Source of the DNA: Myxococcota bacterium
Lineage (GTDB): Bacteria > Myxococcota_A > UBA796 > GCA-2862545
Reading direction: 5' to 3'
Length of the DNA stretch: 33,263 bases
Assembly: GCA_039208735.1 (NCBI GenBank)
Contig: JBCCQY010000104.1
Span: 1-33,263 of the forward strand
Both the position numbers and the translations under genes were made by a program. A model generated the notes under the pieces. The model was not told the origin of the DNA. It saw only the letters and a program-made list of their open reading frames with translations, and did no database searches. Positions 7,464 through 28,816 of the stretch are shown here, piece by piece (positions within the stretch are counted from its first letter, which is position 1; each line of letters opens with the position of its first letter).

Positions 7464-7470
7464 GTAGACC

Positions 7471-7938: not shown

Positions 7939-7948
7939 GGGGGACTCC

Positions 7949-9040: not shown

Positions 9041-9047
9041 GAGCGCC

Positions 9048-10808: not shown

Positions 10809-11128
10809 TGCGCGCGCCCCCGCATCATGGTGATCTGCCGCTGCTGCACGTAGGCGGAAATCAGCTGCTGCGTCTCGGGTGCAAGCGCATTGAAGTCCTT
10901 GTCGCTGATCTGAACGACGGGACCGGGTGCCCCCACCTTGCGCTCATCGCCAGGAAAGCGAAGCTTGCCCGGTTCGGGCAGTCGGTCGCGGTCGGTTGCA
11001 TCACCGAGCACGATGCGACAGCGCTCGACGCGGACCTTCTCACCGTCCTCGTCCTCGCTGTCTTGAACGACGTAGTCGACGATGTGCAGGCACGTGCGCT
11101 GCCGGTTTTCAAGCGTCACCATCGTCAC
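10805..11128 (-). CDS. Hypothetical virion-associated protein
   Basis: Overlap-coupled to capsid and connector genes on both sides; start GTG 11128 or ATG 11122. Confidence 0.7.
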   Translation of the reverse strand: MTMVTLENRQRTCLHIVDYVVQDSEDEDGEKVRVERCRIVLGDATDRDRLPEPGKLRFPGDERKVGAPGPVVQISDKDFNALAPETQQLISAYVQQRQITMMRGRAQ

Positions 11129-12360
11129 ACCGCCCTTGCAAAGCCGAGGATGCAGTTGCCCACATCACCGCAGACAAACCCGCCTGTCCCGGCCCATACG
11201 ACCGTGATCTGATCGAGCGGCCCTGACTGATGGACCGGCATCACCGTGGTGGGCTGCATGATGCAGTTGCCCATGGTGTCCAGCTCGTCGCGGTAGGCGA
11301 GGATGCCGTCCTCGCCGTTGGGACCAATGCCATCGAGTTCCTGGCACTCTTCGATGGCCGTGATGCCGGCGCCATTCGTGCGAAGGAAGAACTCGGCAAT
11401 GGTGGTGTCCGTTCCACCGTTGATTTCGTGCTTCCGCGTGTGCAAAAACGCGTGAATGCGCACGGAAACGGCCAAGCGGTTCGGCTTGAACCGTGCACCA
11501 GACTGGATTTTGGGCGTGTTGACCAAGTCCTGCAGGGCGCGCAGGACAGCCTTCGGATCGGGCGTGTCGGTGAAGTCGACCGCCATGTTCTGCTTGGCGA
11601 GCGACGGGTAGTTCAGGATGCCGTAGAGCTTCTTTTCCCGGGCGCCCTTCCAGCTGATCTCGTTGATCTTCTCATCGACCACCCGGCGAGCGAGTCGAAG
11701 CGCCGCTTCGTAGCGGCGCCATCCCGCGTAGTCGGTCGACAGGGCTTCGAAGAAGTTTCGCCCGACCGAAGCGATGACGTAGGCGGTCTCGAACGTCTCA
11801 TCCACGAGCCCGACATCGACGCGGGGAATTGCGTTTCCACCCTGGTGGATTTCGGCATTGCCGGTGCCAAGCTCACGGATGGCCGTATGCTGGCGTGCGC
11901 CGACCGGAACTCCCGTGTCGATTGGAAAGAGCCGCATGGCGTTGAGGGGCTGGCGCTTTTCTTCCCAAATCCGCTTGTGGACGTGGTTGTAGGTCTCAAT
12001 GCGGCCGCCGTGACCGCCTTTTAGCGCCACCGCGTCCTGGCGAAGTTGGGGCAAGCCCATGCGAACGCGACGACGGTTCTCGCGCTGGATCGCATCCGCG
12101 CGAGCCTGCCAGATCCAGGGACCGGGCTCAATGCCGCGCTCGGCCATCGCGCGGTCCATCATCGAATCGCTGTAGCGACGCCACTGGTCGATGACGTCGG
12201 CACCGCCCACGTACCCGGTGGCGGAGTCGTAGCGGGACCCCGGCTCGCCGGCGGCGCGTCGGCCGAACATCTGCACGGCTTGGGTGATGGTGGAAAGGAA
12301 CTTCCCGGTTTCGACCTGCGGGGTGCCCTGGGGGGTCACATCAATGACGTTCACACTCAT
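11125..12360 (-). CDS. Major capsid protein (DUF2184 / HK97 fold)
   Basis: LFPIDTGVPVGA, NEISWKG..KKLYGILNYPS and LDGIGPNGEDGILAY motifs; ~110-aa N-terminal extension. Confidence 0.88.
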   Translation of the reverse strand: MSVNVIDVTPQGTPQVETGKFLSTITQAVQMFGRRAAGEPGSRYDSATGYVGGADVIDQWRRYSDSMMDRAMAERGIEPGPWIWQARADAIQRENRRRVRMGLPQLRQDAVALKGGHGGRIETYNHVHKRIWEEKRQPLNAMRLFPIDTGVPVGARQHTAIRELGTGNAEIHQGGNAIPRVDVGLVDETFETAYVIASVGRNFFEALSTDYAGWRRYEAALRLARRVVDEKINEISWKGAREKKLYGILNYPSLAKQNMAVDFTDTPDPKAVLRALQDLVNTPKIQSGARFKPNRLAVSVRIHAFLHTRKHEINGGTDTTIAEFFLRTNGAGITAIEECQELDGIGPNGEDGILAYRDELDTMGNCIMQPTTVMPVHQSGPLDQITVVWAGTGGFVCGDVGNCILGFARAV

Positions 12361-12361
12361 G

Positions 12362-13507
12362 TCAGGCCCCCCGCTTGATGTCGACGGCGGCGATTTCGTT
12401 TGCGGCCACGCGGCTCGGGCGCACCCATTCCGCGAGGTTGCGAGAAAGCTTCAGCCGACCGGTGCCCGCTGCGTTGTACAGGCGGCCGGCCGTTGCTCCG
12501 GGCGTGAGGTCGACGTAGACGTCTTGCCCCTGGGCGACGCCGTCCGAACTTTCGACCCACACGCTTCCGCGTCGGGCGTGAAGAAACGACTGGTTGGGTG
12601 CGTACTCGCCCTCGAGGGCGCCCTTGAACGGTGCTTCGACGGCACCCGAACGCAGGGACACGCCACCGAACGCACGAGCCAGCGAGGTGTCCCGGTTGGG
12701 GCCCGTGGTGGCCACGACGGTCGCCACCGCAAGCAGCTCGACGTCGAACTCCAGGCCCGCGACCTCAGCCGTCGCGATGAGGGTGGCGCCTGTTCCCGTG
12801 ATGTCGACGGTGTTGGCCGGCAGCGCAGCGTTGAGGGCCGTCCGGGCATTGCCCGCGTAGGTGGCCTCAACAGCGGACGGGGCGAAGTCGACGCGGGTGA
12901 TGAGTTCGCGCTCCCCGGGGCCAAGGATGCGGTAGACCGCAGCCGTGCCCGGTGCGTTGGCCGACTCGGTGACGGTGAGCGTCTGCACCTGCTGGGCGAA
13001 CGCGCTGGTGCTGGCGAGCGTGCCGAGGCCTTCGCCTTCACCGGTGGCGTAGCCCTGCGAGACCACCGCTCGGCCGAACGGAACCGCATCGGCAGTCTGC
13101 GAGATCGTTGGCGTCGTCGCCGTGAGGTAGGCCTCCGCTTCGACGAGGGTGAACGGAATGCCGGGGAGCAGCGCCGTGAGGGTCACCACGGCGGCGGCCG
13201 CCGAGGCCAAGACCTGGCCCCGCACGAGCGGCTCGGCATTGAGGGCATTCGCGATGGCGGTTGCAATGCCCGCTTCGGCGTTCCCGGTTCCGGTGTTGAA
13301 CGACACGGTGATGCCGTTGACCGTGACGGTGCCATCGACGTTGTCGCCCGGATCGCTGTCGACGGTCACGGTCGAGACCTGCACCCGCTGAGGCGCGTCA
13401 TTGAGGAGCGTGCCGTACTCCTTGAGGACGGAGTCCTGCATCCACTCGCCGATGAAGCCTTCGCGGGCTCTCGGCAGGACGTTGTTGAATCCCTGCGAAA
13501 AGCTCAC
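12362..13507 (-). CDS. Capsid cement/decoration protein with inserted domains
   Basis: AVPFGRAVV and RRGSVWV...VAQGQDVYV motifs; sits between DUF2213 and capsid genes. Confidence 0.75.
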   Translation of the reverse strand: MSFSQGFNNVLPRAREGFIGEWMQDSVLKEYGTLLNDAPQRVQVSTVTVDSDPGDNVDGTVTVNGITVSFNTGTGNAEAGIATAIANALNAEPLVRGQVLASAAAAVVTLTALLPGIPFTLVEAEAYLTATTPTISQTADAVPFGRAVVSQGYATGEGEGLGTLASTSAFAQQVQTLTVTESANAPGTAAVYRILGPGERELITRVDFAPSAVEATYAGNARTALNAALPANTVDITGTGATLIATAEVAGLEFDVELLAVATVVATTGPNRDTSLARAFGGVSLRSGAVEAPFKGALEGEYAPNQSFLHARRGSVWVESSDGVAQGQDVYVDLTPGATAGRLYNAAGTGRLKLSRNLAEWVRPSRVAANEIAAVDIKRGA

Positions 13508-14943
13508 TGAGCACCTCCGCGACTCGCCTCAAAGGCGTCATTCCAGGCGTTCAGCGAAGCCTGTCCAAGGCCGCCGCTGAAGAAGCTCGAGGGGTCCGAC
13601 GCGTCGTGGCGGGCCTCGGGTGCCGGAGCGGGGAGGAGGTCCCCCCAGGCCGCGAGACCCGCGGCACGCCCGGTGCCCGGACCGGAATCGGCCGAGTCCT
13701 GGCGGCGGGCTTCTGCCACATCGACCATGGCTGCAACGTACGAAGCATCGGCACGCTGCTGCTCGGTGAGCACACGGCCGACGACGACTTCAGCAATCTT
13801 GACGGCGATGTCCTGGGCCGAATCGCCCTTCTTGATTTCAACGCCCATGTCCTTGGCGAGCGGCTCCATGTCGCTTTTGGCCTGCTGCTCGTACATGTCG
13901 TGGACCATCGACTCGAGGCGCTCGATGTACTGGTCCTTGGTCAGCCGCTCGCCGTTTTCGTCGGTGTAGCCGCTGTGTTCGTCGTCGTCGGTCGACTCGT
14001 CGTTGTCGTCGGTCGGTGACATATCGTGGACGACGGGGGGAGCCGTGTCTTGGCTCTGCGCCGGGGGTTGCGGCGGGGCCATGTCGTTGGTTTCGGCCAG
14101 CTTCGCATCGACGGCTTTGCCGGCCTCTTCATCGCTGTCGTAGCGACGGTGATCCAGCCCTGCGCGAGTGCACAGCGCGATCATCCAGGGACTCAAGCGC
14201 ATGGGCGCTCCTGGGCTTTTGGAGGGGGTGGGAGGAGGAGAGGGGCGGGAGGGGGAGGAGATGACGTCCACGGCCCGCGCACTCGTGGCGCTGTCCGTGC
14301 GAAGCCGAATGCTGCGCCCGCCGCGCGCATCCGAGACGATGGCAAGGTGGTTGTACCGGCGGTGGGTTTGAATCGCGTCGTAGGCCCCAAACTCGGGATG
14401 CACGCCAGGGGTCGCGTCGATTTGCGCGTGGTAGCCGGGCGATAGCTCTTGCTTTTCGCCCGATTCGATGGCGGTCATCGCGTCGCTGCGTCGGACAGCA
14501 AGCTGCACTTGGACGTAGCCCGTGTCTTCGTGCACCTTGACGCGGTCTCCCACGTCCCCCACAGCAAGCTGCTGCCAGTTGTCAGGGTCAACGTCGTCGT
14601 CGGGATGCTCGAGGGTGACCGGGGCGCGGCCGAGCCCTTCCGCCGAATCGCGAAGCACTTCAAACGTCACGAGTTCGCGGGTTTCGGTGCCGTCGGCGTT
14701 CTTGTAGGTAAGGATGCCCGCCTTCGCGGCCATGCCTTCGATGAACAACTCGTTGCCACGCCGTTGGGGCTTGAGCAGCGTGCCGGCATCCTCACGGTAG
14801 TGCCACGCCGGCGTCGAGCCCTTGGGCGCCTCGGTGGGGTCTGCCGCATCGGTGCGCCGCTCGAGGCGAGTTCGGCGCTCGTGGTTGAGCTTGCGCTTTC
14901 GGCGCTCGCGTCGGGTCACAGGCCGCTCCGTGCTTGGGCCCAT
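13504..14943 (-). CDS. DUF2213 prohead protease-scaffold fusion
   Basis: GILTY...RE, PVTLEHP, KQELSPGY and YNHLAIVSDARGG motifs; acidic helical C-terminal half. Confidence 0.88.
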   Translation of the reverse strand: MGPSTERPVTRRERRKRKLNHERRTRLERRTDAADPTEAPKGSTPAWHYREDAGTLLKPQRRGNELFIEGMAAKAGILTYKNADGTETRELVTFEVLRDSAEGLGRAPVTLEHPDDDVDPDNWQQLAVGDVGDRVKVHEDTGYVQVQLAVRRSDAMTAIESGEKQELSPGYHAQIDATPGVHPEFGAYDAIQTHRRYNHLAIVSDARGGRSIRLRTDSATSARAVDVISSPSRPSPPPTPSKSPGAPMRLSPWMIALCTRAGLDHRRYDSDEEAGKAVDAKLAETNDMAPPQPPAQSQDTAPPVVHDMSPTDDNDESTDDDEHSGYTDENGERLTKDQYIERLESMVHDMYEQQAKSDMEPLAKDMGVEIKKGDSAQDIAVKIAEVVVGRVLTEQQRADASYVAAMVDVAEARRQDSADSGPGTGRAAGLAAWGDLLPAPAPEARHDASDPSSFFSGGLGQASLNAWNDAFEASRGGAQ

Positions 14944-15986
14944 TCGCGGTTCTCCACCGAGCCCGCGAAGCCTTGGTGCTTGCGTGCCGCCGTCTCGAGA
15001 GCGCGCAGGGTGTGGGGGTCGAGGCGCACGGTGGGTGCTTTGGACGCCTGTTGCTTGGCCCGCCGCTTTCGGAAGAGCTGGGTGAGCAACATCGTCAGGC
15101 CGACGGCGCCTGCGCCTTGCGCGATGGCACCTGGGCTGTCCTCGTGGTCGTCGTCGGGCTTCGGCAGTCCGGCTGGGGAGGGGCCGACACCGCCCTGCAA
15201 AGCGGTCGGCTCATCGCCTCGACGGCGTGCCGTTCGCTCGGCCTTGCGTGCCTTGTAAAAGGCCCGCCACTTTGGCCCAGCGGCGGCCCCACCAATGGCT
15301 GAGCCGATGGCAGCGCCTGGCAGATTGAGCAGTGGAATGCCCCCTGCTCCACCGATGATTGCACCCATTTGTCGGGGACTGACCCCAGGCGGACGCTCGA
15401 TATCGCCGCGGCGCCGACCCGCGACATAGCCAGGCATGGGTTTGCGCTTGGGGTGACCCGGTTTGTTCAGGTGCCGCTGGATGGCAGCACCGACGTACGA
15501 GCCCGCAAGGCCACCCAGGCCCAGCGCCCAGCCTACGCGGCTGTCGTCGTTGCCGTCACCATCGTTTCCGTTGCGGTTTCGGCGCCGATTCCGAAGGCGT
15601 CGCAATGCCTCGGCGCCAGCGACCAAACCAAGTCCTGCCAATGCAAATCGAGGGTCCGCTTTGAATCGAATGCCGGGTCGCTTCGGCGGCACACGATAGC
15701 CGCGGCCACCGGGGTTCTTCGCCCCGAACAGCTCACGACGCACGGAGCGTTCGTAGGCATTGCGTTCACTGCGGCCCATCGCGGGGATTTGTTTGCGCCA
15801 CCGGAGTGCGGGATGGTTGCCCTTCTGCCGCCATTGCCGGCCCTTGGAGCGGTCGATGCCGTGGGCCGCCAGGATTTCTTGGATCGGCACGACCTTGCCA
15901 CGACGCGTGTCCTCACGCCGTACAGACGGGGTACGGGTGAGCATCTTCAGGTGGTTCAGACTGCGAAGCCGGTTGCGCAGGTCCAT
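14916..15986 (-). CDS. Hypothetical Arg-rich protein with four Gly/Ala-rich hydrophobic segments (possible internal virion protein)
   Basis: 356-aa ORF heading the minus-strand operon and overlapping the DUF2213 start. No family recognised. Confidence 0.72.
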   Translation of the reverse strand: MDLRNRLRSLNHLKMLTRTPSVRREDTRRGKVVPIQEILAAHGIDRSKGRQWRQKGNHPALRWRKQIPAMGRSERNAYERSVRRELFGAKNPGGRGYRVPPKRPGIRFKADPRFALAGLGLVAGAEALRRLRNRRRNRNGNDGDGNDDSRVGWALGLGGLAGSYVGAAIQRHLNKPGHPKRKPMPGYVAGRRRGDIERPPGVSPRQMGAIIGGAGGIPLLNLPGAAIGSAIGGAAAGPKWRAFYKARKAERTARRRGDEPTALQGGVGPSPAGLPKPDDDHEDSPGAIAQGAGAVGLTMLLTQLFRKRRAKQQASKAPTVRLDPHTLRALETAARKHQGFAGSVENREWAQARSGL

Positions 15987-16062: not shown

Positions 16063-17586
16063 ATGGGCTTCTGGAACGATTTCATCAACCTGTTCAGTGG
16101 GCGTTCCGCACCCCCAACGCTCACGGATGCTACAAATCGTCGCGCGGACAATGCATCGGGTTCACGGGGCGGTGGCGGCTCGATCGTCAATCCGCTGACG
16201 GGACTTGGCGGCCCGCACGACAAGGGTTCGTCTGCCTACCCGAACCTCAACCGGCGTCCCTTGGACGAAGATGAGCTGGAGTCGCTCTACTTGTTCAACG
16301 GAATTGCCCGGAAAATCATCGACTACTTTCCGAAACGCGCGACCCGGAAGGCCTGGGAAGTGCCCGACATCGGCGAGGAGGACAAGCGGCTGCGGACCCG
16401 GTCGAACCTCCGCGAGGGATTGTCGTTGGCTCGGGCCTACGGGGATGCTGTGGTGTTGATGGTGACCGAAGACGATGTGCCACCAGGTTACCGCAACACC
16501 CCCTCGAGGTGGCTCGAACAACCCATCGACCTCGAACGCGTCGGAAAGCTCCATGCGTTGCATGCGCTCGATGTCTGGGAAGCGCATCCGCTCGACGTTG
16601 ACCGCAACCCGCGGTCCAACAACTTTCGCCTTCCCCTGCACTTCTCCGTCAGCACGGAGGGGTTCCAGGCCACCGTTCACCACAGTCGGGTGCTGTTCCT
16701 TCGGGGTCGACGCAAACCGATGAGTCGCGCACGCTACGGGCACCACAGCATCAACCGCATGCCCGACGACTCTGAGTTGCAGGCGATTTGGGATGAGATT
16801 CGGCGGCTCACGTCGGTGATGCAAGGCGGGGCGATTCTGGCGGAGGAACTGCGGCACAGCGTGCTGAAGGTCGGAGACCTCGCCACGCATTCGACGGGGG
16901 ACCAAGCCTCGAAGTTCGAGCAGCGGATCCGGCTCATGCGGCGGTCGTTGAGCCTCATGGGCATGGCCGTCATCGGGCCGAACGACGAATTCGAGGTGCG
17001 CAGTTCACCGCCGAGCGGGTTTGGTGAACTGTCCGAGTCAGGCCAGGCGATGTTGTCGGCCGTGAGCGACATTCCGCGGGTCGACCTGTTCGGGGATGCG
17101 CCCGGTGGGCTGGGTACCGATGGGGAGTCGCACAAGGAAGACGCACGCCAGGCCATCGCCGCCTACCAGGACGACAACCTCGACCCCCTCGAACAGCTCT
17201 ACCAAGTCGTGTATGCGGCCCACGATGGGCCCACGGGCGGCCAGATTCCCGACGAATGGGGCGTGGAGTTCAAGCCCCTCGATGAGCCGAAGGAGCACGA
17301 GGTCGCGGAAGTTCGTCGGTTGATGGCGGACATCGACCAGCTGTACATCGACATGGGGGTGTACACCGAGCAAGACGTGGCGAAAGCGCGGTTCGGGGAA
17401 GACGGTTGGCAACTCGACATGGGGCCCATCGAACCGCCAACGCCTGAAGACCGCGCCATCTTGGAAGGCGCCCGCGAGCGCTTGCGGGTGTTGGCGGGTG
17501 GTCGGCCGTTGACGAATGAGCCAGGAGGCGAACATGGTAGCCAGGCCGAAGGCGCTGGTCCGGTTCCCGCGCCACCTCGAGCGTAG
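16063..17586 (+). CDS. Portal protein (DUF1073 family), 507 aa
   Basis: Start re-set to ATG 16063 (GAGG upstream). NPLTGLG...DK, LESLY..NGIARKIID, ARAYGDA, VHHSRVL, IPRVDLFGDAPGGL and FKPL motifs. Confidence 0.9.
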   Translation: MGFWNDFINLFSGRSAPPTLTDATNRRADNASGSRGGGGSIVNPLTGLGGPHDKGSSAYPNLNRRPLDEDELESLYLFNGIARKIIDYFPKRATRKAWEVPDIGEEDKRLRTRSNLREGLSLARAYGDAVVLMVTEDDVPPGYRNTPSRWLEQPIDLERVGKLHALHALDVWEAHPLDVDRNPRSNNFRLPLHFSVSTEGFQATVHHSRVLFLRGRRKPMSRARYGHHSINRMPDDSELQAIWDEIRRLTSVMQGGAILAEELRHSVLKVGDLATHSTGDQASKFEQRIRLMRRSLSLMGMAVIGPNDEFEVRSSPPSGFGELSESGQAMLSAVSDIPRVDLFGDAPGGLGTDGESHKEDARQAIAAYQDDNLDPLEQLYQVVYAAHDGPTGGQIPDEWGVEFKPLDEPKEHEVAEVRRLMADIDQLYIDMGVYTEQDVAKARFGEDGWQLDMGPIEPPTPEDRAILEGARERLRVLAGGRPLTNEPGGEHGSQAEGAGPVPAPPRA

Positions 17587-18880
17587 GCTTGTCGGGCTGC
17601 TGCTCCGGCGGCAACGCGTCGCGAGGCGGCTCATCCTCGAGCAGTTCGACGAAGGGGTGGAGCCAGAGCGTGCGGTCGAGCTGGTGGGCCAGGTCATGGC
17701 GGATTTGCCCATGGACCGCGACAAGCTCTTGCGCATTGTCGAGCTGGCCGACAAGTGGGGCACGCGGCGGGTCAAGCAGGACGTCGGGACCCTCATCGAA
17801 CGACCCGCCAAACGGCCCAGGACGCCGTCAGGGACGGTGGGTTCGCGAACACCGAAGCGGTCAGAGCCTCGTCGCGATTCCATGGACGAGGAATCGTGGG
17901 TCGATGGCGTGTCGGGTCGAACCCGGGCCACGGAAATCAAGGCGCTTGCCGACATCAACGATGCGGTACGGCTCGCGGTGCGGACCGGGATGGCGCGACG
18001 GGACCTCGAGGTCATCCTGCGCAAGCACTTCGGGGTGGCCGAGCGTAGAGCACGGTTCATCGCCCGAGACCGCGTTGGAACGCTCAACACCGACATCACG
18101 CGGCTCAAGCACCAACGGCTTGGGTTTCGGTTCTACCGGTGGGTGAGCTCGGACGATGAGCGCGTGCGACCGTTGCACGCCGCGTTGGACGGGCGGATTC
18201 GAAGTTGGGACGACCCGCATCCAACCGAGGGACATCCTGGCCATGCGCCGAATTGCCGGTGCACCGCAGAACCCGTCACCGACGAAGACGCCATGGAGGA
18301 GATGCGACGCAACCGGATGCCGGCGGCGGTGGTGGCGTCGACGGTGGCAGGACTTGGGTTGCTGGGCCTTGGGGCGGTGACCGCACGCCGTGTGTTGCCG
18401 CAGGTGTTCGAACGCTTGTCCCGTGCCGGTCGTCCCCCGAGACCGGGCACCATGGCCGCGCGTGAGCGCCGTCGACGGTTCCAGGAAGCCGCTACCGAGC
18501 GCGTGCGTCGAGGTCGGTTGGCGAGTCCTGCCAACTTGCCCGGTGAGGACGTCACCAACGTGCTCAAGCTGCCCACCGGTGGACGCCAATACCTGCGGCG
18601 ACAACGGTCAGCGCGGTTTTCGTATGCGCACGACCTGGTGCGCCGTATTCGCGAGCAGGAGCGCCTTCGGGGTGTTCCGGTGGACCAGCTCTCCGACTAC
18701 GGCGGGACGTTCCAGAGCGCGTTGAAGGCGATCGAGGACGCCAAGAGTGATCGGGAACTGCGAGCGCGGTTGGCACGGTTGGCAGGACGGGGGAGCGTGG
18801 AGGACCTGACGGAACGCCAACGACGCCGGGTGCGGAGTCGACGACGGCGGAAGACGCGGAAGGCCTCGAAGAAGCGGTGA
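17534..18880 (+). CDS. MuF / SPP1 gp7-family head morphogenesis protein with C-terminal extension
   Basis: AGGAGG 5 nt before ATG 17534. RARFIARD, YRWVSSDDERVRPLH and HPGHAPNCRC motifs; ~190-aa hydrophobic then Arg-rich tail. Confidence 0.9.
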   Translation: MVARPKALVRFPRHLERRLVGLLLRRQRVARRLILEQFDEGVEPERAVELVGQVMADLPMDRDKLLRIVELADKWGTRRVKQDVGTLIERPAKRPRTPSGTVGSRTPKRSEPRRDSMDEESWVDGVSGRTRATEIKALADINDAVRLAVRTGMARRDLEVILRKHFGVAERRARFIARDRVGTLNTDITRLKHQRLGFRFYRWVSSDDERVRPLHAALDGRIRSWDDPHPTEGHPGHAPNCRCTAEPVTDEDAMEEMRRNRMPAAVVASTVAGLGLLGLGAVTARRVLPQVFERLSRAGRPPRPGTMAARERRRRFQEAATERVRRGRLASPANLPGEDVTNVLKLPTGGRQYLRRQRSARFSYAHDLVRRIREQERLRGVPVDQLSDYGGTFQSALKAIEDAKSDRELRARLARLAGRGSVEDLTERQRRRVRSRRRRKTRKASKKR

Positions 18881-18946
18881 CGGTCCGTCACGCTCATAGG
18901 CCCTCGACTTCCTAGTGCTGAACAACACCAAGTTCTACATCGACAA

Positions 18947-19655
18947 GTTTCAATGCGCTCCATCACGCGCATGGGCCTGCAACCTCTGGACGGACGACGA
19001 TGGAGTCGTCACCCAGGCCGAGTTCGACGACCGGGTTTCAATGCGCTCCATCACGCGCATGGGTCTGCAACCCGATGTGGGTACTATCACCCACACTGGC
19101 GACCATACTGGTTTCAATGCGCTCCATCACGCGCATGGGTCTGCAACCTATGGCATCCGGCAAGGGTGCGGCTCATTCTACCGTTTCAATGCGCTCCATC
19201 ACGCGCATGGGTCTGCAACGCCTACAACAATGCGTTCGAGGCCTTCGTGCGTTCACGTTTCAATGCGCTCCATCACGCGCATGGGTCTGCAACCACCGAC
19301 AACAAGAAGACCGCGAAGAAGTACGTCAAGTTTCAATGCGCTCCATCACGCGCATACGCGCGCGACGATCGTAATGGGTCCCGAGGTGCCCATCGGCGTT
19401 CTGTTTCAATGCGCTCCATCACGCGCATACGCCCGCGACCATTGCATAAAGATAAGTCTCTACATCTTATCAGGTTTCAATGCGCTCCATCACGCGCATA
19501 CGCCCGCGACTCTGGAAGAAGCGGAAGGTTTCCCTGATCGCTCTCGTTTCAATGCGCTCCATCACGCGCATACGCCCGCGACGGTGATCAAGGGCTACGG
19601 CGAAGACGCCATCATGATGTTTCAATGCGCTCCATCACGCGCATACGCCCGCGAC
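18947..19655 (-). CRISPR. CRISPR array: 10 intact 37-nt repeats in two variants and 9 internal spacers, plus a degenerate trailer repeat (18872-18908) and extra spacer (18909-18946); no cas genes in the window
   Basis: Repeats start (+ strand) at 18947, 19035, 19111, 19183, 19257 (GTTTCAATGCGCTCCATCACGCGCAT-GGGTCTGCAAC) and 19330, 19403, 19474, 19546, 19619 (same 26 nt then ACGCCCGCGAC). Spacer lengths 38,51,39,35,37,36,36,34,35,36. Minus-strand repeat has an ATGCGC/GCGCAT hairpin and ends ATTGAAAC. Confidence 0.97.
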
Positions 19656-19878
19656 TGCGGCCCTTGAGATTGTAGGTTCCCAGCACTCTTCCAGCGCCGA
19701 AAACCGGAACCTCACCCCTGTTCACCCTCTCACCCCCTTGCAACGATCGCCAACGGCGTTCGCCGCTTGGGGATTTCCTACCATCAACCAGCGCTGTCAA
19801 AGAGCCGGAGGACCTCACGGGCCAACCGTTGTTTCCAGGACCCCCTGAGGTGTCCCGGAGCGTCCGAGGGCCATGGAG
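19656..19878 (-). promoter_or_regulatory. CRISPR leader
   Basis: Apparently non-coding stretch at the end opposite the degenerate repeat, downstream of a promoter-like motif. Confidence 0.65.
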
Positions 19879-19907
19879 ATTGTAGATCAGCCGAACGTGA
19901 ACGACAA
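19879..19907 (-). promoter_or_regulatory. Sigma70-type promoter pointing into the CRISPR array
   Basis: Minus strand reads TTGTCG-17 nt-TACAAT. Confidence 0.55.
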
Positions 19908-19941: not shown

Positions 19942-20030
19942 CTAAGGTTCTTCGCCTTCGGGGCGCTTCCGCAGCGCCTTGAGCAGCTTGCCCAGCTCCT
20001 CGTTCCACTTCGCTACGTCGTAGACCGTAG
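19942..20030 (-). pseudogene. Orphan 3' end of a gene (VYDVAKWNEELGKLLKALRKRPEGEEP*)
   Basis: Strong GC3 codon bias only over the last ~30 codons; amphipathic helix reminiscent of a TIR-domain C-terminus. Confidence 0.4.
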
Positions 20031-20084: not shown

Positions 20085-21530
20085 CTATTGACCTGGGGCG
20101 TACCGCCGTTGTGGCCTTTGTCCGGAATCGGTCCATTCCTTTACTATAGACTCGATCCCCCATTGGCCTGGATGATAGCGCTGGTTACAGATGCCTTCCA
20201 CGGTTTTTGAATTGGCTGGACAGTATCGATCCAGCCTGCAGGACCTGCTCTTGTCGAGTTGGCCGCGCAGCTCCTTGGGAAAGAGAGTTCTCTCATCCCA
20301 ACAAAAATACTGCTCGATAAGCTTTCTTGAAAGTCCCTTTGCGTCTACGAGATTCGTTCCGCGGACGTCAATATCCTCCCCCCAAAGGACATCGTCAAAG
20401 ACAGCTTCTCTTAGGTCAGACTCAGCGAAGGAGTTGGTGTGGAGCCTTGCGGACGAGAAGTCGGCCGCCCGCATATCACTGGAGCAGAACGAACTTGCTG
20501 TTAGGTCGACCCCGCCAAAATCTGCGGAACTGCCATCAGAGCACACAAGGTTGAGATACAGAGCTTCGTCCTTGGCAGTGTTGCTGAAGTCCGCCTTCCG
20601 CAGGCTGCCTCTGAACATGTGCACACTAACGAAGGCACCTTCCCAGTTCGTATTGCTGAGGTCAACCCGAAAGAACCGAGTATGGAAGGTCACTACTCCC
20701 TCCAGTCGGGGACGAGCGGGCTCAGGACCAGTTCCGCTCTTGGTACCAAATATGAACCCGTGGCTGTTCCAGTCTTCGGCACCGCGTGAAGGTGTTCCTG
20801 GGCCCATCACCCACGCGTGGCCCAACGTAGCTTCACGAAAGTCAGTTCCATAAGGCAGAACCTCAATTAGCCTGGAGTTCGAGAGTTCTGCCGAACGGAA
20901 CGAAGTGTCAGCAATCGACGATTGGAACCATGTCGAGCCTTCGAGGTTCGCGCCGTCGAACCTCGCTGCTGTGAGGTCTCGACCGCTGACGTCAATTCCA
21001 CGGAGGTCGCCAGCAACCTGGATTCCCGCCAAGCTGTTTTCGTTGGAAGCATCAAATCGAAGCAGCTCGCGGAGAGCTGAACTCCTGACACCACTGAATC
21101 GGCTGCCCAACTCGTCGTCATTAGGTTGCAATCTTTCGAATAGCTCTGGCAGGCGACCTTGGTTGAACTGGTCGACAAGCGCTTTAGTTTGCTTCTGAAC
21201 TTCCGCCGTCTGCAGTCGAATCTCATTGGTCTGCAGCATGAGTGCCACAAACTCTCCAACCGCCAGCATCGAGACTGCAGCACTCAGCACCACGGTGACC
21301 AGCGTTGGAATCAGTAGGCGCATGGCCGCCGCACCCACGGTGTGAGTCAGCTCTCCGATTGGAAACGCTCGACCAGGATCATCGGGCTCGGCATGGGCCC
21401 ACTCTCTCAACTTGTCCCTCAGGTCATCCAGCGATCGCATGACCTCGCTGCCAATTACGCTGTTGAGTAGAAACCGCACCAGTTCGCCTCCCAAGACGGA
21501 AGCGTACACAAACGCGGAGCCTGGGACCAA
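20085..21530 (-). CDS. Membrane-anchored pentapeptide-repeat protein
   Basis: Hydrophobic segment LLIPTLVTVVLSAAVSMLAVGEFVALML, then many A(D/N)(L/F)xx repeats (ARFDG ANLEG, ADFSS, SDLRE, TNLVD). Start codon uncertain (TTG); lower GC3 than phage core genes. Confidence 0.8.
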   Translation of the reverse strand: MVPGSAFVYASVLGGELVRFLLNSVIGSEVMRSLDDLRDKLREWAHAEPDDPGRAFPIGELTHTVGAAAMRLLIPTLVTVVLSAAVSMLAVGEFVALMLQTNEIRLQTAEVQKQTKALVDQFNQGRLPELFERLQPNDDELGSRFSGVRSSALRELLRFDASNENSLAGIQVAGDLRGIDVSGRDLTAARFDGANLEGSTWFQSSIADTSFRSAELSNSRLIEVLPYGTDFREATLGHAWVMGPGTPSRGAEDWNSHGFIFGTKSGTGPEPARPRLEGVVTFHTRFFRVDLSNTNWEGAFVSVHMFRGSLRKADFSNTAKDEALYLNLVCSDGSSADFGGVDLTASSFCSSDMRAADFSSARLHTNSFAESDLREAVFDDVLWGEDIDVRGTNLVDAKGLSRKLIEQYFCWDERTLFPKELRGQLDKSRSCRLDRYCPANSKTVEGICNQRYHPGQWGIESIVKEWTDSGQRPQRRYAPGQ

Positions 21531-21890
21531 CTTGAGAGTTCACAGTTCGACAAGCGTGTGTGCGCCTAATCCAGTGCGATGTCGCGGACTTCCCCAGTTT
21601 GGGCCTTTCACCAATTCTGCGGCCCGTTGCGGCATCAGAGGGCGGCCATGCCAAGGTTCACATGCCCAAGAGGAGGACGGACACTCACCAGCTGCTATGC
21701 ATTCACCTCACCTGCCACGAGTGGGATGACCGGAGTAGAGGCACGAATGCTCGTCCTTCTCCGGCGACATCCACTCATGCGGCTTCGGCAGCTCGGCCAC
21801 GGCACCTCCCCGGGGATTGTGGCACGACGGAGGCCACGCCCTGTGAACTGGCACGACATGCAACCGCGGTAGGCTTTGCCTGGAGGGTGC

Positions 21891-23066
21891 ATGGCGCGAC
21901 GCGCAGGGCACGTGTTCATCAGCTACAAACGCGAGGAGGCGGACACAGCGCGGATGCTGCGCGATGCGCTCGAGGCGGACGGCTTCGCCACGTGGTGGGA
22001 TGAGGACATCCAAACCGGGCAGCAGTGGGCGCAGGCGCTGGACGAAGCCGTGAAGGGTGCAACGGCGATTGTGGTGCTGTGGTCGAAGCGATCCGTGGGG
22101 TCGAAGTGGGTGACGCATGAGGCGAGCGTCGCGTTGGCCCACGACAACTACGCGCCGGCGCGCATCGAACTGGTGGCGATTCCGACGCCGTACGACCGGG
22201 TGCAGGCGACGGACCTGCTGGAGTGGGACGGTGATACCGAGCACGCAGGGTACGTGTCGCTGGTACGGCGGTTGGATGAGCTGATGCCCATGCCTACGCG
22301 ATGGCCGGTCAGAGTGGGCCGCTGGTTGTGGGGGAACGCTGTGGCGATTGCAGCAACGGCAGGGTTGTTGACAGTGCTGGTCGCCACCTTCCAGGTGCTC
22401 CAGCGGATCCAAGAAGAAGCGAGTAAGCCCGAACTCGTCCGGATGAGCGACGCCATTTGGCCAGAAGGCCTGTGCCACAGCTCAATACCGCACGCTTCGA
22501 CGCTGGTAGAGCAGTTTGTGAGAGATGAACGCTCTCTTGCGGTCGCTTGCCTCACCGGCGCCGACCTCCGAACAGCCAACCTCAACGGGGCCATCCTCCG
22601 ACATGCCGACCTTAAGGAGGCCGACCTCACCAGGGCTGACCTCAAGGAGGCCGACCTCACCTGGGCCAACCTCCACAAGGCCGACCTCACCTGGGCCAAC
22701 CTCCACAAGGCCGACCTCACCATGGCCAGACTCATCAGGGCCGTCCTCGAACACGCCCGCCTCATCAGGGCCCAGCTCACTGAGGCCAACCTCACCTCGG
22801 CCAATCTTCACGGAGCCAGCCTCACAGGGGCCGACCTCCAATCTGCCAAACTCGACGGGGCCGTCCTCACACATGCCGACCTCACCAGGGCCGACCTCCA
22901 ATCGGCCAACCTCAACGGGGCCGACCTCCGACGGGCCAACCTCACCAACGCGAGGCGATTTCCCGATGACCCACCGATCCAAGGCTGGACCACGACGAAC
23001 TGCGAACCACGCTTCGATGGCGACATCTCCGTCTGCCTCACCCGCGCCGAGCCCCCCAGGGAATAG
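21891..23066 (+). CDS. TIR domain - transmembrane helix - pentapeptide-repeat protein
   Basis: GGAGG before ATG 21891. HVFISY...WWDEDI..G..W...IVVLWSKRSVGSKWVTHEA with the catalytic Glu position kept; TM AVAIAATAGLLTVLVATFQVL; long run of regular A(D/N)Lxx repeats. Confidence 0.92.
   Translation: MARRAGHVFISYKREEADTARMLRDALEADGFATWWDEDIQTGQQWAQALDEAVKGATAIVVLWSKRSVGSKWVTHEASVALAHDNYAPARIELVAIPTPYDRVQATDLLEWDGDTEHAGYVSLVRRLDELMPMPTRWPVRVGRWLWGNAVAIAATAGLLTVLVATFQVLQRIQEEASKPELVRMSDAIWPEGLCHSSIPHASTLVEQFVRDERSLAVACLTGADLRTANLNGAILRHADLKEADLTRADLKEADLTWANLHKADLTWANLHKADLTMARLIRAVLEHARLIRAQLTEANLTSANLHGASLTGADLQSAKLDGAVLTHADLTRADLQSANLNGADLRRANLTNARRFPDDPPIQGWTTTNCEPRFDGDISVCLTRAEPPRE
22651..22721 (+). 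repeat. Exact 30-bp tandem duplication within pentapeptide repeats
   Basis: CCGACCTCACCTGGGCCAACCTCCACAAGG twice plus a partial third copy. Confidence 0.9.
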
Positions 23067-23116
23067 CGTGGCGCCAAGGCCGACGGCGGGTGAACGCCAA
23101 AGCCCCGCGCCACCGT

Positions 23117-23300
23117 TCAGACACCCGTGACCAGCGCACGCCCAGCCACCACCCGAACCGACCGCATCGGGTGCGGGTACCGATCCTCGGCGTTGCGGTG
23201 GGCGAAGTGCACAACGTCGTCGTCGTCCTCGAGTGCCCTCTTGAGGTCATCGTGAAAGTGTGCACGGGCTTTCGCCTCATCCGCGATACTCGACCCGGGG
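23117..23300 (-). pseudogene. Start-less 3' gene fragment (…IADEAKARAHFHDDLKRALEDDDDVVHFAHRNAEDRYPHPMRSVRVVAGRALVTGV*)
   Basis: Open GC3-biased frame ending TGA at 23117. Upstream it hits a stop at the AlbA gene start without meeting a start codon. Confidence 0.45.
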
Positions 23301-23321
23301 GCTGATCTGCAAGGAGGCTAG

Positions 23322-24551
23322 ATGCTCTTTGGCAAGCTTGCGAAGGATCTGGAACGTGGCGATGTGGACGCCCTAATCGACAACGCAGTCTCGGAGGGGC
23401 GACGACTCGATTACAAGCTGACCTTACCTGGCACCAAGAACAGTGATCGGAAGGAGTTCATTGACGACGTATGCTCTCTAGCGAACGCTGGTGGCGGTCA
23501 CATGCTGTTCGGCATCGACGAGGAAAGGGATGCCTCCGGAAAGAGCACAGGTCGCCCCCGCTCTGCATCCGGTCTCGGAGGGATCAATCGGGATCAGGAA
23601 GTACTGCGACTTGACTCGATGATCCTGACCAACATCTCTCCTCGAATCCGCCATCGATGGCGGTTCATAGACGGTTTCGCTGAAGGGCCTGTCGCAGTTC
23701 TTGAGGTGGACCGCTCCTGGGTCGGGCCGCACATCACGACGCATAGTGCAAGCAGGTTCCCGATGCGTGGCGGCGCAGGGAAGTACCACATGGACATCGA
23801 CCAGATCCGTGCCTCATTCATTTCTACGGCTTCGACCTCTGAGAGGCTTCGTTCCCTGCACGAAGAACAAATCGCCCTCAATGCTCAACGTGACTTACCA
23901 ATCGCGCTCGAGGGCCCGTTTCGCGTGTATGTGCACCTTCTGCCATTGTCTCTCGGAGCCGAAGTCGGACGACAGATCGATCCCCAAGACTGGGGTGAGC
24001 AAAGGTCTAAACTTGCTCCATTGGGCGCATCTGGTTGCAACTACCGCTACAACATCGACGGATACTTGACCTTCGCCAGAAACCCCTACGAAGCTGAGCA
24101 GTCTTCCTATCGTAAGGCCCAGCGTTCCTACCTACAGGCCTTTCGGCAAGGGACGTTGGTGTCTGCTACCTGCCGGTACGTGACCATGAGAGACGACGTG
24201 TGGTACATCCCATCGTCGCTGTTCGAGAAGGACGTCATGCGCTTCGTCCACCAGAAGCTCAGCGTCATGGCAAACGTTGGGGTCGAGCTGCCTATCGTGG
24301 TGTTGGTGTCGCTGGTCAACATGCGTGGTGTTCGGCTGGCGATAAGTAACTATGCCCCGATTAAAGAGCAGGGAGAACCCATCGACCGAGAGGCCCTCAC
24401 CTTGCCGGAGGCCCTGTTCGAGGAAGTCCCTCCGGACGCCCTAGCCGCGGCCCGTTTGCTTCGCCCGCTGTTTGATGGCTTGTGGCAGGCGTGCGGACAC
24501 CCCGAATGCTTGAACTATGACCCGGATGGAAACTGGCGGGAGAGTCCGTAG
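23322..24551 (+). CDS. AlbA_2 / Schlafen-like domain protein
   Basis: AAGGAGG RBS. SEGRRLDYK, EFIDDVCSLANAGGGHMLFGIDE, PH and R.GAGK..MD..QIRASF motifs; ~240-aa unrecognised C-terminal domain. Confidence 0.88.
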   Translation: MLFGKLAKDLERGDVDALIDNAVSEGRRLDYKLTLPGTKNSDRKEFIDDVCSLANAGGGHMLFGIDEERDASGKSTGRPRSASGLGGINRDQEVLRLDSMILTNISPRIRHRWRFIDGFAEGPVAVLEVDRSWVGPHITTHSASRFPMRGGAGKYHMDIDQIRASFISTASTSERLRSLHEEQIALNAQRDLPIALEGPFRVYVHLLPLSLGAEVGRQIDPQDWGEQRSKLAPLGASGCNYRYNIDGYLTFARNPYEAEQSSYRKAQRSYLQAFRQGTLVSATCRYVTMRDDVWYIPSSLFEKDVMRFVHQKLSVMANVGVELPIVVLVSLVNMRGVRLAISNYAPIKEQGEPIDREALTLPEALFEEVPPDALAAARLLRPLFDGLWQACGHPECLNYDPDGNWRESP

Positions 24552-24972: not shown

Positions 24973-25833
24973 TCACTTCTCCCCCCTGCGGCGAGTGAAC
25001 AGCGGGCCCTGCGAGCCTTGCCGCTCGCGCCGTCGTAATTCCGCCGCAATCCCCTTTTGGAACGCGTAGACCGTCTGCTGCCGTTCCGATCCCGACGACG
25101 ACATCACGGTCTCTTCGCCAACCCAGCTCCACGCGTCGTCGTCGAGCAGCCCAACGCTCTGCAGCCGCTTCTTCATCGTCTGGGCGCTGCAGCCCTCGGG
25201 ACGCGCCAGCTGGCCCAGGCTTCGGATCGAAAACCGCTCGGGGATGCTCAGCGGCGGAACAGGCACCCCGTGAACGAGAAGCTGCCTCGCTGGCGCCGCG
25301 CCGTCACCAAGAGCGGGAACGCGGGTGTGCGGGAGCGTGGCGAATTGCTTGGCGAGGCCCGACACCACATGCGTGAGGCCCGCCACGGCCTCCGTCAACC
25401 TCTCCTGACCCTGCTCGAGCCGAGAGACTCGTGCCGCCAACGCGTCATCGTGGGTGGGACCGCCCGGCGTGTACTGCCCGGTTCGCGACAACTGGGGCAG
25501 GACCTCATCGGCGAGGAACCTGCGTAAGGCAACGCCGATGGGCTTGCGGGTCTTGATGAACACGAGGTTCCAGCCCGATTCGGTGAGAAAGAGCCTTCGC
25601 CTCATCTTTCCGTTCAGTCCTCCATTGGAGGACTGGCCATTGTGAAGGCGCAACCGATAGTCTCGATCTTCCACGAATTCGGCAGCCCACTTGCCCCGTA
25701 TGAGGTCGGTGAGGCGGTTGCGGCGGTCATAGCCCATCACCTCAGCGAGATGGCCTGCTTCGATCATGGGTTGGTTGTCGACTTGAAGGACCTCGAGGGG
25801 TTGGCCCTCGAACTCGAAGGTGAATTCAAGCAT
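24973..25833 (-). CDS. Bro-N domain antirepressor-like protein
   Basis: FEFEGQPLEV, LAEVMGY, FLTESG, RKPIG..LRRFLADEVLPQLSRTGQY motifs; GGAG 6 nt before ATG 25833. Confidence 0.88.
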   Translation of the reverse strand: MLEFTFEFEGQPLEVLQVDNQPMIEAGHLAEVMGYDRRNRLTDLIRGKWAAEFVEDRDYRLRLHNGQSSNGGLNGKMRRRLFLTESGWNLVFIKTRKPIGVALRRFLADEVLPQLSRTGQYTPGGPTHDDALAARVSRLEQGQERLTEAVAGLTHVVSGLAKQFATLPHTRVPALGDGAAPARQLLVHGVPVPPLSIPERFSIRSLGQLARPEGCSAQTMKKRLQSVGLLDDDAWSWVGEETVMSSSGSERQQTVYAFQKGIAAELRRRERQGSQGPLFTRRRGEK

Positions 25834-26048
25834 GGGGGACTCCACAGCTCAGTCGGGTCCAGCGCTGCGGTTCAGCGCCGGCGGGAAGGGGGAAGGGAGT
25901 GTGGCGGGAGGGGAGAGCACACCGGATGCAGGACGGAGCCCACAGGCGTCCGTCAGGCGCTCGAACGCCTCGTCCGTCGTGCATTGATGCGTCTGCCAAG
26001 CGGAAGAACAGCGGAAGATGACGAAGCACGTTGCTTCTGAACCAACAA

Positions 26049-26376
26049 CCTTCTTCCTTCTTCTTCTCTTCCTCTCCCCCAACCCCGGTCCGGTCCAGAC
26101 AGGGTCCGGGGTACGGTCCGACGTTGGAGACCGATGACAACAGTGTGGTCCGGAGGGTCCAGGGTTGGAATCGTTGTGCACTCCCTTGGGGTGTAGAGAG
26201 GGTGGCGCACCGCTCGGGAAGTGCGTGGGAATGCACGCAGACCCCTGCCCATCCGGACCAGGGTGGTGTCGTCTGCGCTCTTGCCCGGCCCAGCGTTTGG
26301 ACCGGGCGTGTCCGATGTCGGACCGTCGGTGACGATGCCCTGTTCATCGGCATCGCACAGGGAACGACCCCGGACC
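26049..26376. other. Putative phage replication origin (pyrimidine tract plus opposed GGTCC/GGACC pentamers)
   Basis: Within a ~570-bp gap with no credible gene, downstream of the primase. Six GGTCC at 26087-26160 and four GGACC at 26255-26376. Confidence 0.5.
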
Positions 26377-26401
26377 TGTCGGAGGAGAACGGCACCATCG
26401 G

Positions 26402-28816
26402 CTACGCCCCCACGTGACGAGCGACAGCGCTCTCGGGAAGCAGGTACATGCGCACGCGTTTGTCGTCGCCTGCTCGCAAGCGAATCCGCGTCGGGCCATC
26501 CGCGTTGGTGAGGATTTGGAGCGCCTTGCCCGTCTTCACAGGTGAGGGCACGGGTTCACCCGCCCCAACGAGCGGTCGCCAATTCCGAATGAGACCTGGA
26601 ACGCTGATGAGGACCGTGTCGGCGTAGTTGGGGTGCCAAAGGAACGGCGGGTATTTGTCGTCGACCCAGTTCCGTTCGGCGGGGCTCATCTCGAGGTAGC
26701 AGGCCAACGCATCGAGGATGGTTCGCGGCAAGCCTTCGCGCGTGCCCACCCGAGCCGACCACTCGGCCGCATCTCCAGGCACTAAGAAGCGCGGGTCGCG
26801 CTCGACGGTGCGGTTTTCCACCAGCCATGCGATGTGCTCGACCAACCTGCCGCGCGAGCCATCGGCGCGTTCGAGCCAATCTGAGGTGATCCCTTGCCGG
26901 CCTCCCCGCACCTTGAGCCAACGTTCGGCGGCCGGGTTGCAGTCAACAATGAGCATGCGGTCGCCAATCGCGTCGTTGTCCATGCGCGTCAGGGCTTCGC
27001 GACCCCACCCCATCGGGTCGGGGTTGTTCGAGCAGATGATGAGCCGAGGACAGCCGTGAAGCGTGCCAGACGGTTCACCCTTTGCCTCGATGGCGTGCCG
27101 GGAGTTGGCGATGCGCTTTCGCATGACGCCGGTGCTCGCCTTCACCTCGGCTTGTTCGTCGAGGTGCATGATGGGACAGCGCAACAGCGCATCGTTGAAG
27201 CGGCCCTTGAAGACGTCGTCGTAGTCGGTGACCGCACTGCCGAAGTAGGCGCTGCAGGCCTCCGCAATCATGGACTTGCCGATGCCCTTCGCACCGTAGA
27301 GCCACAGCGCACTCGTGGGCTGGCCGAGTTCCGGCATCGTGGCAAGCCAATCGAGGGTCCGCTCGTTGAACGCGAGCCTTAGCCACTCATCAACGTCGGC
27401 GTGGAACACCGCAGGCGGTGGCGGCTCTTGCAAGACCTGCAAGAACAGCTTCCCGCCGTGGTTCGGCCCTTTCTCGAAGCGGGTGCGGCTCGTGTAGCTG
27501 AAGATGACGTCATCGACGCGACGGCCGAACCGCTCGTACAGCGTGGCCGCCCCGAGCGGCTCCCCCTCCTCGTTGCGGGTCTGCAGATGGGGCCACAAGC
27601 GCTGAAGCTCGACCCGTACAAGCTTCGAGGCGACGAAGACGTAGCCTGTCGCCGTGGCCACATAGAAGCCTTGTGCCCCCTTCGCCGCAGCCAGGTACGG
27701 CCGACCATCCGGCGTTTCGCTACAGCACGTTCCGCCATCCGGGGGCGTGGACGCCACTGCGTAGCGGACGAGCCCCGCCGTCGGGTCGAAGGCCTGGGGG
27801 CCTTCCCGCCACCGGTCGTTGAGGTCGCGCGTCTCGGTCGCGTCCGGGTCGGGAACCCACACGGGGCACCGTCCCTCGAGGGACTCGGCCACCGCCTTCG
27901 CGTAGGCGCGTCCCGTGGCGTTCGGGTCGGTGCAGACGAAGACCTGCGTGCCATCGGGGATGCGCGCCGCGAGTTCGGGCGTCCACTGACCGGCTCCAAT
28001 CCCGAACACGATGTCGGGACTGGTCTCGGAAAACCACGCGGCCACCGTGAGGAAGTCCGGGCCGCCTTCGGTGAGGTAGATGCGGGCGCCTTCCCCGAGT
28101 GCGCCGCCACGAAGCAGGGTTCGTCCTGCAACGTTCGCGAACACCAGGCCCCCCACGGTGTAGCCCTTGGGATTGAGGCTCTTCTGCCCATGGACGTCGG
28201 CAACCTTGCGAGCCCGGACCGACCGCAACGTGCCAGTGGCGTCGTACAGCGGCAGCAGGACGCGGTAGTGGCTGCGCCATCGTCGGGCCCAGTTGGGAGC
28301 CTGGTTCGGGATGACGCGTGCGAGGTCACGGTCGGCCAGTGCCGCAGGGTCCAGACCTCGGCTCCGCACCCACGCTGCCGACGCCTCGTCGTCGGTGATC
28401 GAGGTTGCCTGTCCCCACAGCCGCTCGACGTCCGAGCGCGGGGGTGGTGATCGCTCTGGTTCTGGCGGGGGCGGTGGTGGCGGCTTCACCCGTGGCGGCG
28501 GTGGGCCGTCCGCTGACGGATCACACCAGCCACGGGACGCGAACCAGGCCCGGGTCTCAGGTGACGTGGGCTCGACACCAAGGGCCAAACCGACGAGGTC
28601 CACCGTTGAGCCCGTGCGTTGGCAGCGGTGGCACCGCCAACCTGCGCCGTCGGTCGTGGTTCCGATGGGACCCCGACGGGAGCTGCGCTCACGGCGGCGT
28701 TCCCCACAAGAAGGGCAGGGACCAATGGTGTTGCGCGTGACCTGAAGCTTCAAGGCAGCGGCGATGTGAGCGACGGGATGGTTCTTTGCTTGGGTGACCC
28801 AGCCGTGCATCGTCAT
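26402..28816 (-). CDS. Primase-helicase: Zn finger, Toprim and SF3/D5-like (DUF5906) helicase
   Basis: CPSC...WRCHRC, poly-Pro linker, LTEGGPDFL, CTDPNATG, DLND, Walker A GAKGIGKS, Walker B IMHLDE, motif C LIICSN. Confidence 0.9.
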   Translation of the reverse strand: MTMHGWVTQAKNHPVAHIAAALKLQVTRNTIGPCPSCGERRRERSSRRGPIGTTTDGAGWRCHRCQRTGSTVDLVGLALGVEPTSPETRAWFASRGWCDPSADGPPPPRVKPPPPPPPEPERSPPPRSDVERLWGQATSITDDEASAAWVRSRGLDPAALADRDLARVIPNQAPNWARRWRSHYRVLLPLYDATGTLRSVRARKVADVHGQKSLNPKGYTVGGLVFANVAGRTLLRGGALGEGARIYLTEGGPDFLTVAAWFSETSPDIVFGIGAGQWTPELAARIPDGTQVFVCTDPNATGRAYAKAVAESLEGRCPVWVPDPDATETRDLNDRWREGPQAFDPTAGLVRYAVASTPPDGGTCCSETPDGRPYLAAAKGAQGFYVATATGYVFVASKLVRVELQRLWPHLQTRNEEGEPLGAATLYERFGRRVDDVIFSYTSRTRFEKGPNHGGKLFLQVLQEPPPPAVFHADVDEWLRLAFNERTLDWLATMPELGQPTSALWLYGAKGIGKSMIAEACSAYFGSAVTDYDDVFKGRFNDALLRCPIMHLDEQAEVKASTGVMRKRIANSRHAIEAKGEPSGTLHGCPRLIICSNNPDPMGWGREALTRMDNDAIGDRMLIVDCNPAAERWLKVRGGRQGITSDWLERADGSRGRLVEHIAWLVENRTVERDPRFLVPGDAAEWSARVGTREGLPRTILDALACYLEMSPAERNWVDDKYPPFLWHPNYADTVLISVPGLIRNWRPLVGAGEPVPSPVKTGKALQILTNADGPTRIRLRAGDDKRVRMYLLPESAVARHVGA

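Follow-up and report, generated by a model that had tools for sequence, protein, structure and literature searches.

The window analysed here, a 33,263-nt stretch of DNA, is the entire contig C104 of the genome of a marine bacterium (9.4 Mb, 64% GC, 92.7% complete and 6.2% contaminated). It contains a CRISPR array that is flanked on both sides by phage genes. To the left of the array lie the head, neck, tail and baseplate genes of a myovirus (764-14943, minus strand), assigned through protein-family matches and including those for the protease, capsid, sheath and tape-measure proteins, followed by portal and Mu-F-like genes on the plus strand (16063-18880). To the right are a pentapeptide-repeat gene (20088-21530, minus strand), a cargo region comprising a TIR-pentapeptide gene and a Schlafen/AlbA_2 gene (21876-24551, plus strand), and then a Bro-N/Ant anti-repressor and primase (24973-28816, minus strand) that display 89% identity to the corresponding region of contig C120. 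The phage setting proposed in a preliminary description of the window is thus borne out, not only by the genes on either side but also by a read-derived contig (17648-19063) that spans the join between the Mu-F-like gene and the array, connecting the gene to spacer 10 and the first repeats with zero differences; the run from which it derives is possibly the source sample, and hence the contig is not independent of the assembly. The same description had noted that cas genes were missing, in agreement with a Pfam scan of 50 ORFs in the window (41 + 9), which returned no cas families; the Cas1, RAMP, Cas6 and Cas10 matches are all on contigs other than C104.

The arrangement of the phage genes is unusual. 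Among 160 loci encoding related portals, a terminase gene is upstream and on the same strand in 25/25 cases where one was seen, while a protease gene is downstream and on the same strand in 61/61. Unlike all these informative relatives, C104 has its portal and Mu-F-like genes in the opposite orientation to the head genes, with no terminase upstream or elsewhere on the contig; the matching terminase family, the partner of the C104 portal, is located on contig C111. No match to the tyrosine integrase family PF00589 was found on C104, C111 or C120, and no attachment site was found on C104. The gene order and integrase of an intact prophage are thus not seen on C104, which may end before such genes. 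The element looks like a defective prophage, which makes the view of the array as the weapon of an active phage weaker than that of immunity carried in a resident element. As C104 revealed neither an integrase nor an attachment site, we infer integration into the host genome only from the temperate-type genes and from contig ends that are common to other contigs. With respect to these ends, positions 1-588 of the window have a 96% copy at the end of contig C162, and positions 33120-33263 recur without change at the ends of C160, C163 and C267, so the right end may be an insertion sequence. An adjacent ORF of 642-691 amino acids (31125-33200) has no match in Pfam, PHROG or NCBIfam. Further left, an arginine-rich ORF with glycine-rich hydrophobic stretches (14919-15986) likewise matches no family, and the C-terminal half of the Mu-F-like protein (17516-18880) is an extension that resembles it; both are possibly internal virion proteins.

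The array consists of ten intact 37-nt repeats (18947-19655, minus strand), which on that strand have the 3' end ATTGAAAC, and ten spacers that are all distinct and 34-39 nt long, apart from spacer 9 (18984-19034), the longest at 51 nt. At the trailer end an eleventh, degenerate repeat (18872-18908, minus strand) lies in register with the others, separated by 38 nt from the last intact one, and overlaps the stop codon of the Mu-F-like gene; no terminator-like site was found between this gene and the array. It matches the intact repeat at 23/37 positions, 23 of the last 28 bases being conserved; of 64,652 background positions, 3 attain this score. These features agree with the preliminary description, which had listed the ten distinct spacers, a degenerate repeat at the left and the minus-strand 3' end of the repeats. 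Its statement that the repeats are near-perfect holds within, but not between, two blocks of five. The trailer-side block (18947-19293) comprises five type A repeats with spacers 6-9, and the leader-side block (19330-19655) five type B repeats with spacers 1-4; spacer 5 (19294-19329) lies at the junction and spacer 10 (18909-18946) is trailer-most. In each block four of the five copies are identical, and the 3' 26 bases are the same in all ten repeats, while 5 of the first 11 bases differ between the blocks. An Rfam search returned no matches, and the exact repeat core was absent from IMG/VR, from the other GTDB genomes and from JGI metagenomes, sets from which the records nearest to the host genome may be missing.

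Upstream of the array is a 223-nt leader of 62% GC (19656-19878, minus strand), preceded by a sigma-70-type promoter-like site (19907-19879, minus strand) with a 17-nt gap, which is directed into the array 223 nt away. The leader and promoter that the preliminary description had placed to the right of the array are therefore upheld as a prediction. This was the one such site found, against 0.3 expected in shuffles of 1.4 kb, and host contigs contain 27 such sites in 507 kb, or 0.053 per kb. All three copies of the leader have the two hexamers intact, which is weak evidence because the flanks are 91% conserved too. A search for the leader in 60 relatives gave no match, the only similarities being to repeats in the genomes G039 and G045 and short matches to the tail of the TIR gene.

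The other two leader copies, with 88% identity, are at the ends of contigs C111 and C120, where repeats of the same family follow in each case; all three copies in the assembly thus reside within phage-like DNA. C111 corresponds to a prophage early arm encoding Erf, repressors, an initiator, DnaB, RusA, TerS and TerL, while C120 contains the primase and Bro-N region that it has in common with C104. On both contigs a 3' fragment of the terminase gene is followed by a pentapeptide-TIR gene, the leader and the array; this fragment, a copy of the last 35-42 terminase codons, spans 27704-27829 on C111 and 26144-26248 on C120. In C104 the pentapeptide-TIR gene, which precedes the leader in complete form on C111 and C120, is broken, such that only its last 84 bases (19942-20025) and its upstream region and first codons (21749-21826) are left, both on the minus strand, with the pentapeptide-repeat gene sitting between the two remnants. 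It appears that the leader-array unit was acquired immediately behind a phage terminase gene and that two other phage-like elements of this genome later received copies of it along with the pentapeptide-TIR gene. Homologues of the TIR gene on C18 and C135 are without the leader. The start block comprising the upstream region and first codons is also found at C120 340-417 and C208 12522-12642, heading several different pentapeptide or cargo genes, which suggests that gene bodies have been swapped behind a fixed start. All 21 spacers compared across the leader-array family differ, pointing to separate acquisition at each copy. The repeats themselves provide a link to contig C206, which carries a cas operon (see below): one repeat variant is limited to C111 and C206, making a join of these contigs the best guess. 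A 78-nt stretch common to C206 and C120 was rejected as a candidate attachment site, because it belongs to a coding frame.

The two-block pattern of the C104 repeats may have arisen when a changed first repeat was duplicated in four later acquisitions, by recombination between arrays or through an error of joining. If the last of these applied, or if leader and array copies had truly recombined, C104 would be a chimera in which the head-tail arm and type A repeats go with the terminase arm on C111, while the primase arm and type B repeats belong elsewhere. The presence of three near-identical leaders and of the sole terminase found, the family partner of the C104 portal, on C111 would accommodate such an origin, as would the abrupt switch of repeat type at spacer 5, which is bridged by none of the read-derived pieces listed (8 of 40), and the six positions at which the leader piece among those listed differs from the window. 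The read depth, however, is similar on both arms of C104 (about 8-11), neither the leader-proximal 50 bases nor the type B repeats occur on another contig, and the repeat variants tie C111 more closely to C206 than to C104. A chimera is thus distinctly improbable and, under either join, every leader and the C104 trailer would still be in phage-like DNA.

Cas6 enzymes cleave 8 nt from the 3' end of the repeat. The stem at this site is predicted to form with a pair probability of 0.96-0.97 in the type A, C111 and C206 repeats (0.97 for the type A repeat in isolation), compared with 0.08 and 0.00 in type B repeats. In the latter the 5' end is nearly complementary to the middle of the repeat, and the predicted outcome is a rival 5' hairpin in place of the cut-site stem; these leader-side repeats may be cut less well. 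The hairpin reported in the preliminary description did not survive as a general property of the array, as folding is not stronger than in shuffled sequences (z -0.04 to -1.19) and the stem is predicted for the trailer-side block only. Across 14 aligned repeat variants the stem bases are unchanged in all 14, differences being confined to the 5' part and the loop, and no covariation was found.

The host genome contains three cas loci, of types I-G (C57), I-D (C192) and III-B (C206), of which only the last carries the C104 repeat family. At the end of contig C206 nine repeats are located directly after cas6 and a Cmr operon, which is led by a SEFIR/TIR-SAVED gene. The preliminary description had put forward a search for the same repeat beside a cas operon elsewhere in the host, and the III-B locus, with its own Cas6, is such a case. 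The C104 array is therefore more appropriately termed ‘distant' than ‘orphan', the label it was first given, because the matching cas genes are elsewhere in the genome. Two type III loci in G039, a relative whose arrays belong to the same repeat family, encode Cas6 proteins that are 33-35% identical to the one from C206; the I-D enzyme is only distantly similar. Cmr2 contains the GGDD motif, while its 628-aa open frame has no HD match and no room for an HD domain. The best Pfam match of the putative effector gene is SEFIR, and its SAVED match is weak, falling just under both cut-offs. PF05107 was not found in the host search, and the compatible locus is not of type I-B. A single-protein scan with Cmr2 as the query returned no relatives. 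It was also observed that the C206 operon (2606-12648) includes two Cmr4-like genes and is adjoined by IS66 remnants and a kinase gene.

No cas1 or cas2 is present on C206, and only Cas1 of the I-D and I-G types was found in the 92.7% complete genome; the Cas1 that is flanked by this repeat family in G045 has closest host matches of only 32-37% identity. Many III-B loci are without Cas1-Cas2, according to PMC5576922. The missing cognate Cas1 would nevertheless suit the proposal that a dead prophage has left behind a wholly or partly silent array, with a trailer block that was functional in the past, variant leader-side repeats that are inefficiently processed and no further gain of spacers. 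The same proposal is in keeping with the lack of a terminase and the inverted portal block on C104, given the unbroken order in relatives (25/25; 61/61), with the predicted loss of the cut-site stem from type B repeats and with the disruption of the TIR gene that precedes the leader. We regard it as unlikely in view of the identity of four of the five repeats per block and of the 3' 26 bases in 10/10, the intact promoter hexamers in 3/3 leader copies and the differences between all 21 family spacers, which suggest that each copy acquired its own.

The targets of the array were sought in IMG/VR with exact 23-nt cores of five spacers (1, 2, 5, 6 and 10). Spacers 1, 2, 5 and 6 had no match, while the core of spacer 10, which is also the oldest, occurred in 64 stretches. 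All 64 matches are in frame and encode the same capsid peptide, with full-length identities of 31-36 of 38; in the best of these (36/38) both differences are silent. The target gene encodes a major capsid protein of phrog_2522, distinct from the prophage's own capsid, phrog_264, and is 31-36% identical to the capsids of Salmonella phage Arash and Vibrio phages D69, D148 and D181. Four of the target-phage records are rated 99-100% complete and are 188-202 kb in length. The phages found with spacer 10 are relatives of the true target, caught because the capsid stretch is conserved, and are unrelated to the prophage. The suggestion that the array acts ‘against competitors' can be retained in so far as one spacer has a phage target; the identified target is an unrelated large phage and not a close relative. 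The target group is widespread, and most of its larger genes have no PHROG match. In one of its members, G156, no integrase or nucleus-shell family was found among 89 larger ORFs, most of which had no match, and for that reason no claim is made for a lytic lifestyle or a phage nucleus.

Comparison of the spacers with the host genome, the other check named in the preliminary description besides IMG/VR, gave no hit. Against the host's own genome and co-resident elements no C104 spacer scored above shuffles (best 26/36; shuffles 23-24), and no protospacers were found in 154 genomes of the host order, INPHARED phages, PLSDB plasmids or the 160 portal-relative loci, the last of which also contained no CRISPR-like arrays. 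The G156 capsid gene was not found in the 154 genomes. Within 1.07 Mb of the capsid-hit phages no second spacer from any array (140 spacers) rose above shuffle level, no second target for the C104 or C206 arrays was evident in 29 whole phage records, and short-peptide searches with translated spacers gave only noise.

The guide from spacer 10 is antisense to the capsid mRNA, as type III systems require of their guides (PMC5576922), and the flank of the protospacer matches just 1-3 of the 8 handle bases. A codon model, which called the strand correctly 1497 of 2000 times on known genes, placed eight of the ten C104 spacers antisense to coding sequence (sign-flip p = 0.018; binomial p = 0.11). 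The corresponding counts were 57/78 for the G039 arrays, 19/41 for the host type I arrays and 5/11 for the sister arrays, which thus have no antisense bias and leave the C104 count as weak evidence. It is conceivable that the guides are instead loaded into the host type I-D Cascade and direct the cutting of DNA, as the I-D locus encodes Cas6, Cas4, Cas1 and Cas2, its repeat ends in the same 8 bases, and type I and type III systems are known to share guides (PMC5576922). Beyond these 8 bases the I-D repeat differs, the C104 repeat family adjoins Cmr and not I-D, and the triplets on the PAM side of spacer 10 (ATC in 57, ACC in 6 and ACT in 1 of the 64 matches) are absent from the I-D and I-G motifs tabulated in PMC8482600, the phages compared being relatives of the true target. 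Use by the I-D system is thus very improbable.

Collectively, these data favour a model in which the cas-less array, located in a resident and likely defective prophage, supplies guides in trans to the host type III-B (Cmr) system against unrelated large phages, a reading that we consider likely, if by no means certain. In this model the leader promoter would transcribe the minus strand of the array, and the product of the cas6 gene that closes the Cmr operon would cut each repeat 8 nt from its 3' end. Guide-loaded Cmr would bind complementary phage mRNA, in the case of spacer 10 the major capsid message, whereupon the HD-less, GGDD-bearing Cmr2 would synthesize cyclic oligoadenylate. This signal would prompt the adjacent SEFIR-SAVED protein to degrade NAD+, stopping the infection at the cost of the cell. 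Each of these steps, from transcription, Cas6 cutting and Cmr loading to cyclic oligoadenylate synthesis and NAD+ loss, is proposed by analogy with established type III biology; TIR-SAVED degrades NAD+ upon binding cA3 (10.1101/2022.05.04.490601; 10.64898/2026.09.16.751991). A more extreme version, in which the whole type III-B/SEFIR-SAVED system is phage cargo, is unlikely. Here a temperate phage would have taken the array and Cmr operon behind its terminase, C111 and C206 being joined through the array, seeded copies into co-resident elements and killed cells infected by the roughly 190-kb phages via their capsid mRNA.

The C104 array is a real prophage-borne cas-less array, and its kind is already known. 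The closest precedents are the multi-spacer, cas-less arrays inside the Clostridioides difficile prophages phiCD630-1/-2 and phi027 and the skin element, which are expressed and depend on host Cas (PMC4556805), so that the principle of such an array using the host machinery is established. As described in that paper, the C. difficile arrays resemble the one in C104 in having a promoter, a leader of ~200 nt (223 nt here, predicted), a presence in more than one prophage, reliance on host Cas and phage-matching spacers. They differ in being of type I-B and shown to be expressed, whereas expression of the C104 array is a prediction and the machinery that matches it is type III-B with a putative SEFIR-SAVED effector; in addition, the C104, C111 and C120 copies carry different spacers. 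The mini-arrays of SPV1, SPV2 and phages likewise have no cas genes, a leader with a predicted promoter and host-type repeats, but contain 1-2 spacers against close relatives (PMC6858448; PMC11656645), compared with ten in C104, where the known target has a different capsid family. The preliminary view that ten spacers is long is accurate relative to such mini-arrays, while it is not unusual beside the C. difficile arrays, the closer precedent. C104 also conforms to ‘distant' arrays used in trans, which are far from cas genes and of which 75% have a repeat that matches a cas cluster elsewhere (PMC7145637). Unlike most of these it is in a prophage, a rare location for CRISPRs, with 212 reported in about 27,000 predicted prophages (PMC7145637). 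Finally, the host Cmr locus, with a cyclase-type Cas10 and a TIR-family/SAVED gene, resembles type III TIR-SAVED NADase systems (10.1101/2022.05.04.490601; 10.64898/2026.09.16.751991), from which it differs in the predominance of the SEFIR over the SAVED match, and its activity is putative.

What is new here is the probable coupling to type III-B, the recurrence of the cassette across three phage-like elements and a target in the capsid mRNA of unrelated large phages; in the literature searched, which was largely open access, no report of a type III-B-coupled prophage array was found. The locus offers a concrete case of resident phage DNA whose guide RNAs would serve a host immune pathway that senses RNA and destroys NAD+, and the target can be named: the conserved capsid stretch of a widespread large-phage group. 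It also suggests a route for the spread of arrays within one genome, as a cassette of terminase remnant, TIR gene, leader and array moving between prophages.

Several observations were made in related genomes. A single-protein scan with the portal as the query gave no relatives; among the portal-relative loci, those in G149 (L079, 7228-9342) and G148 (L080, 1006-3495) encode portals fused to a 2'-5' RNA ligase-family (2H) domain. In contig C116 of G039 (395-4442) genes for a reverse transcriptase, an AEP-primase-domain protein, cas1 and cas2 are arranged in a row, and this cas1 is 81% identical to the G045 cas1 that is flanked by the C104 repeat family.
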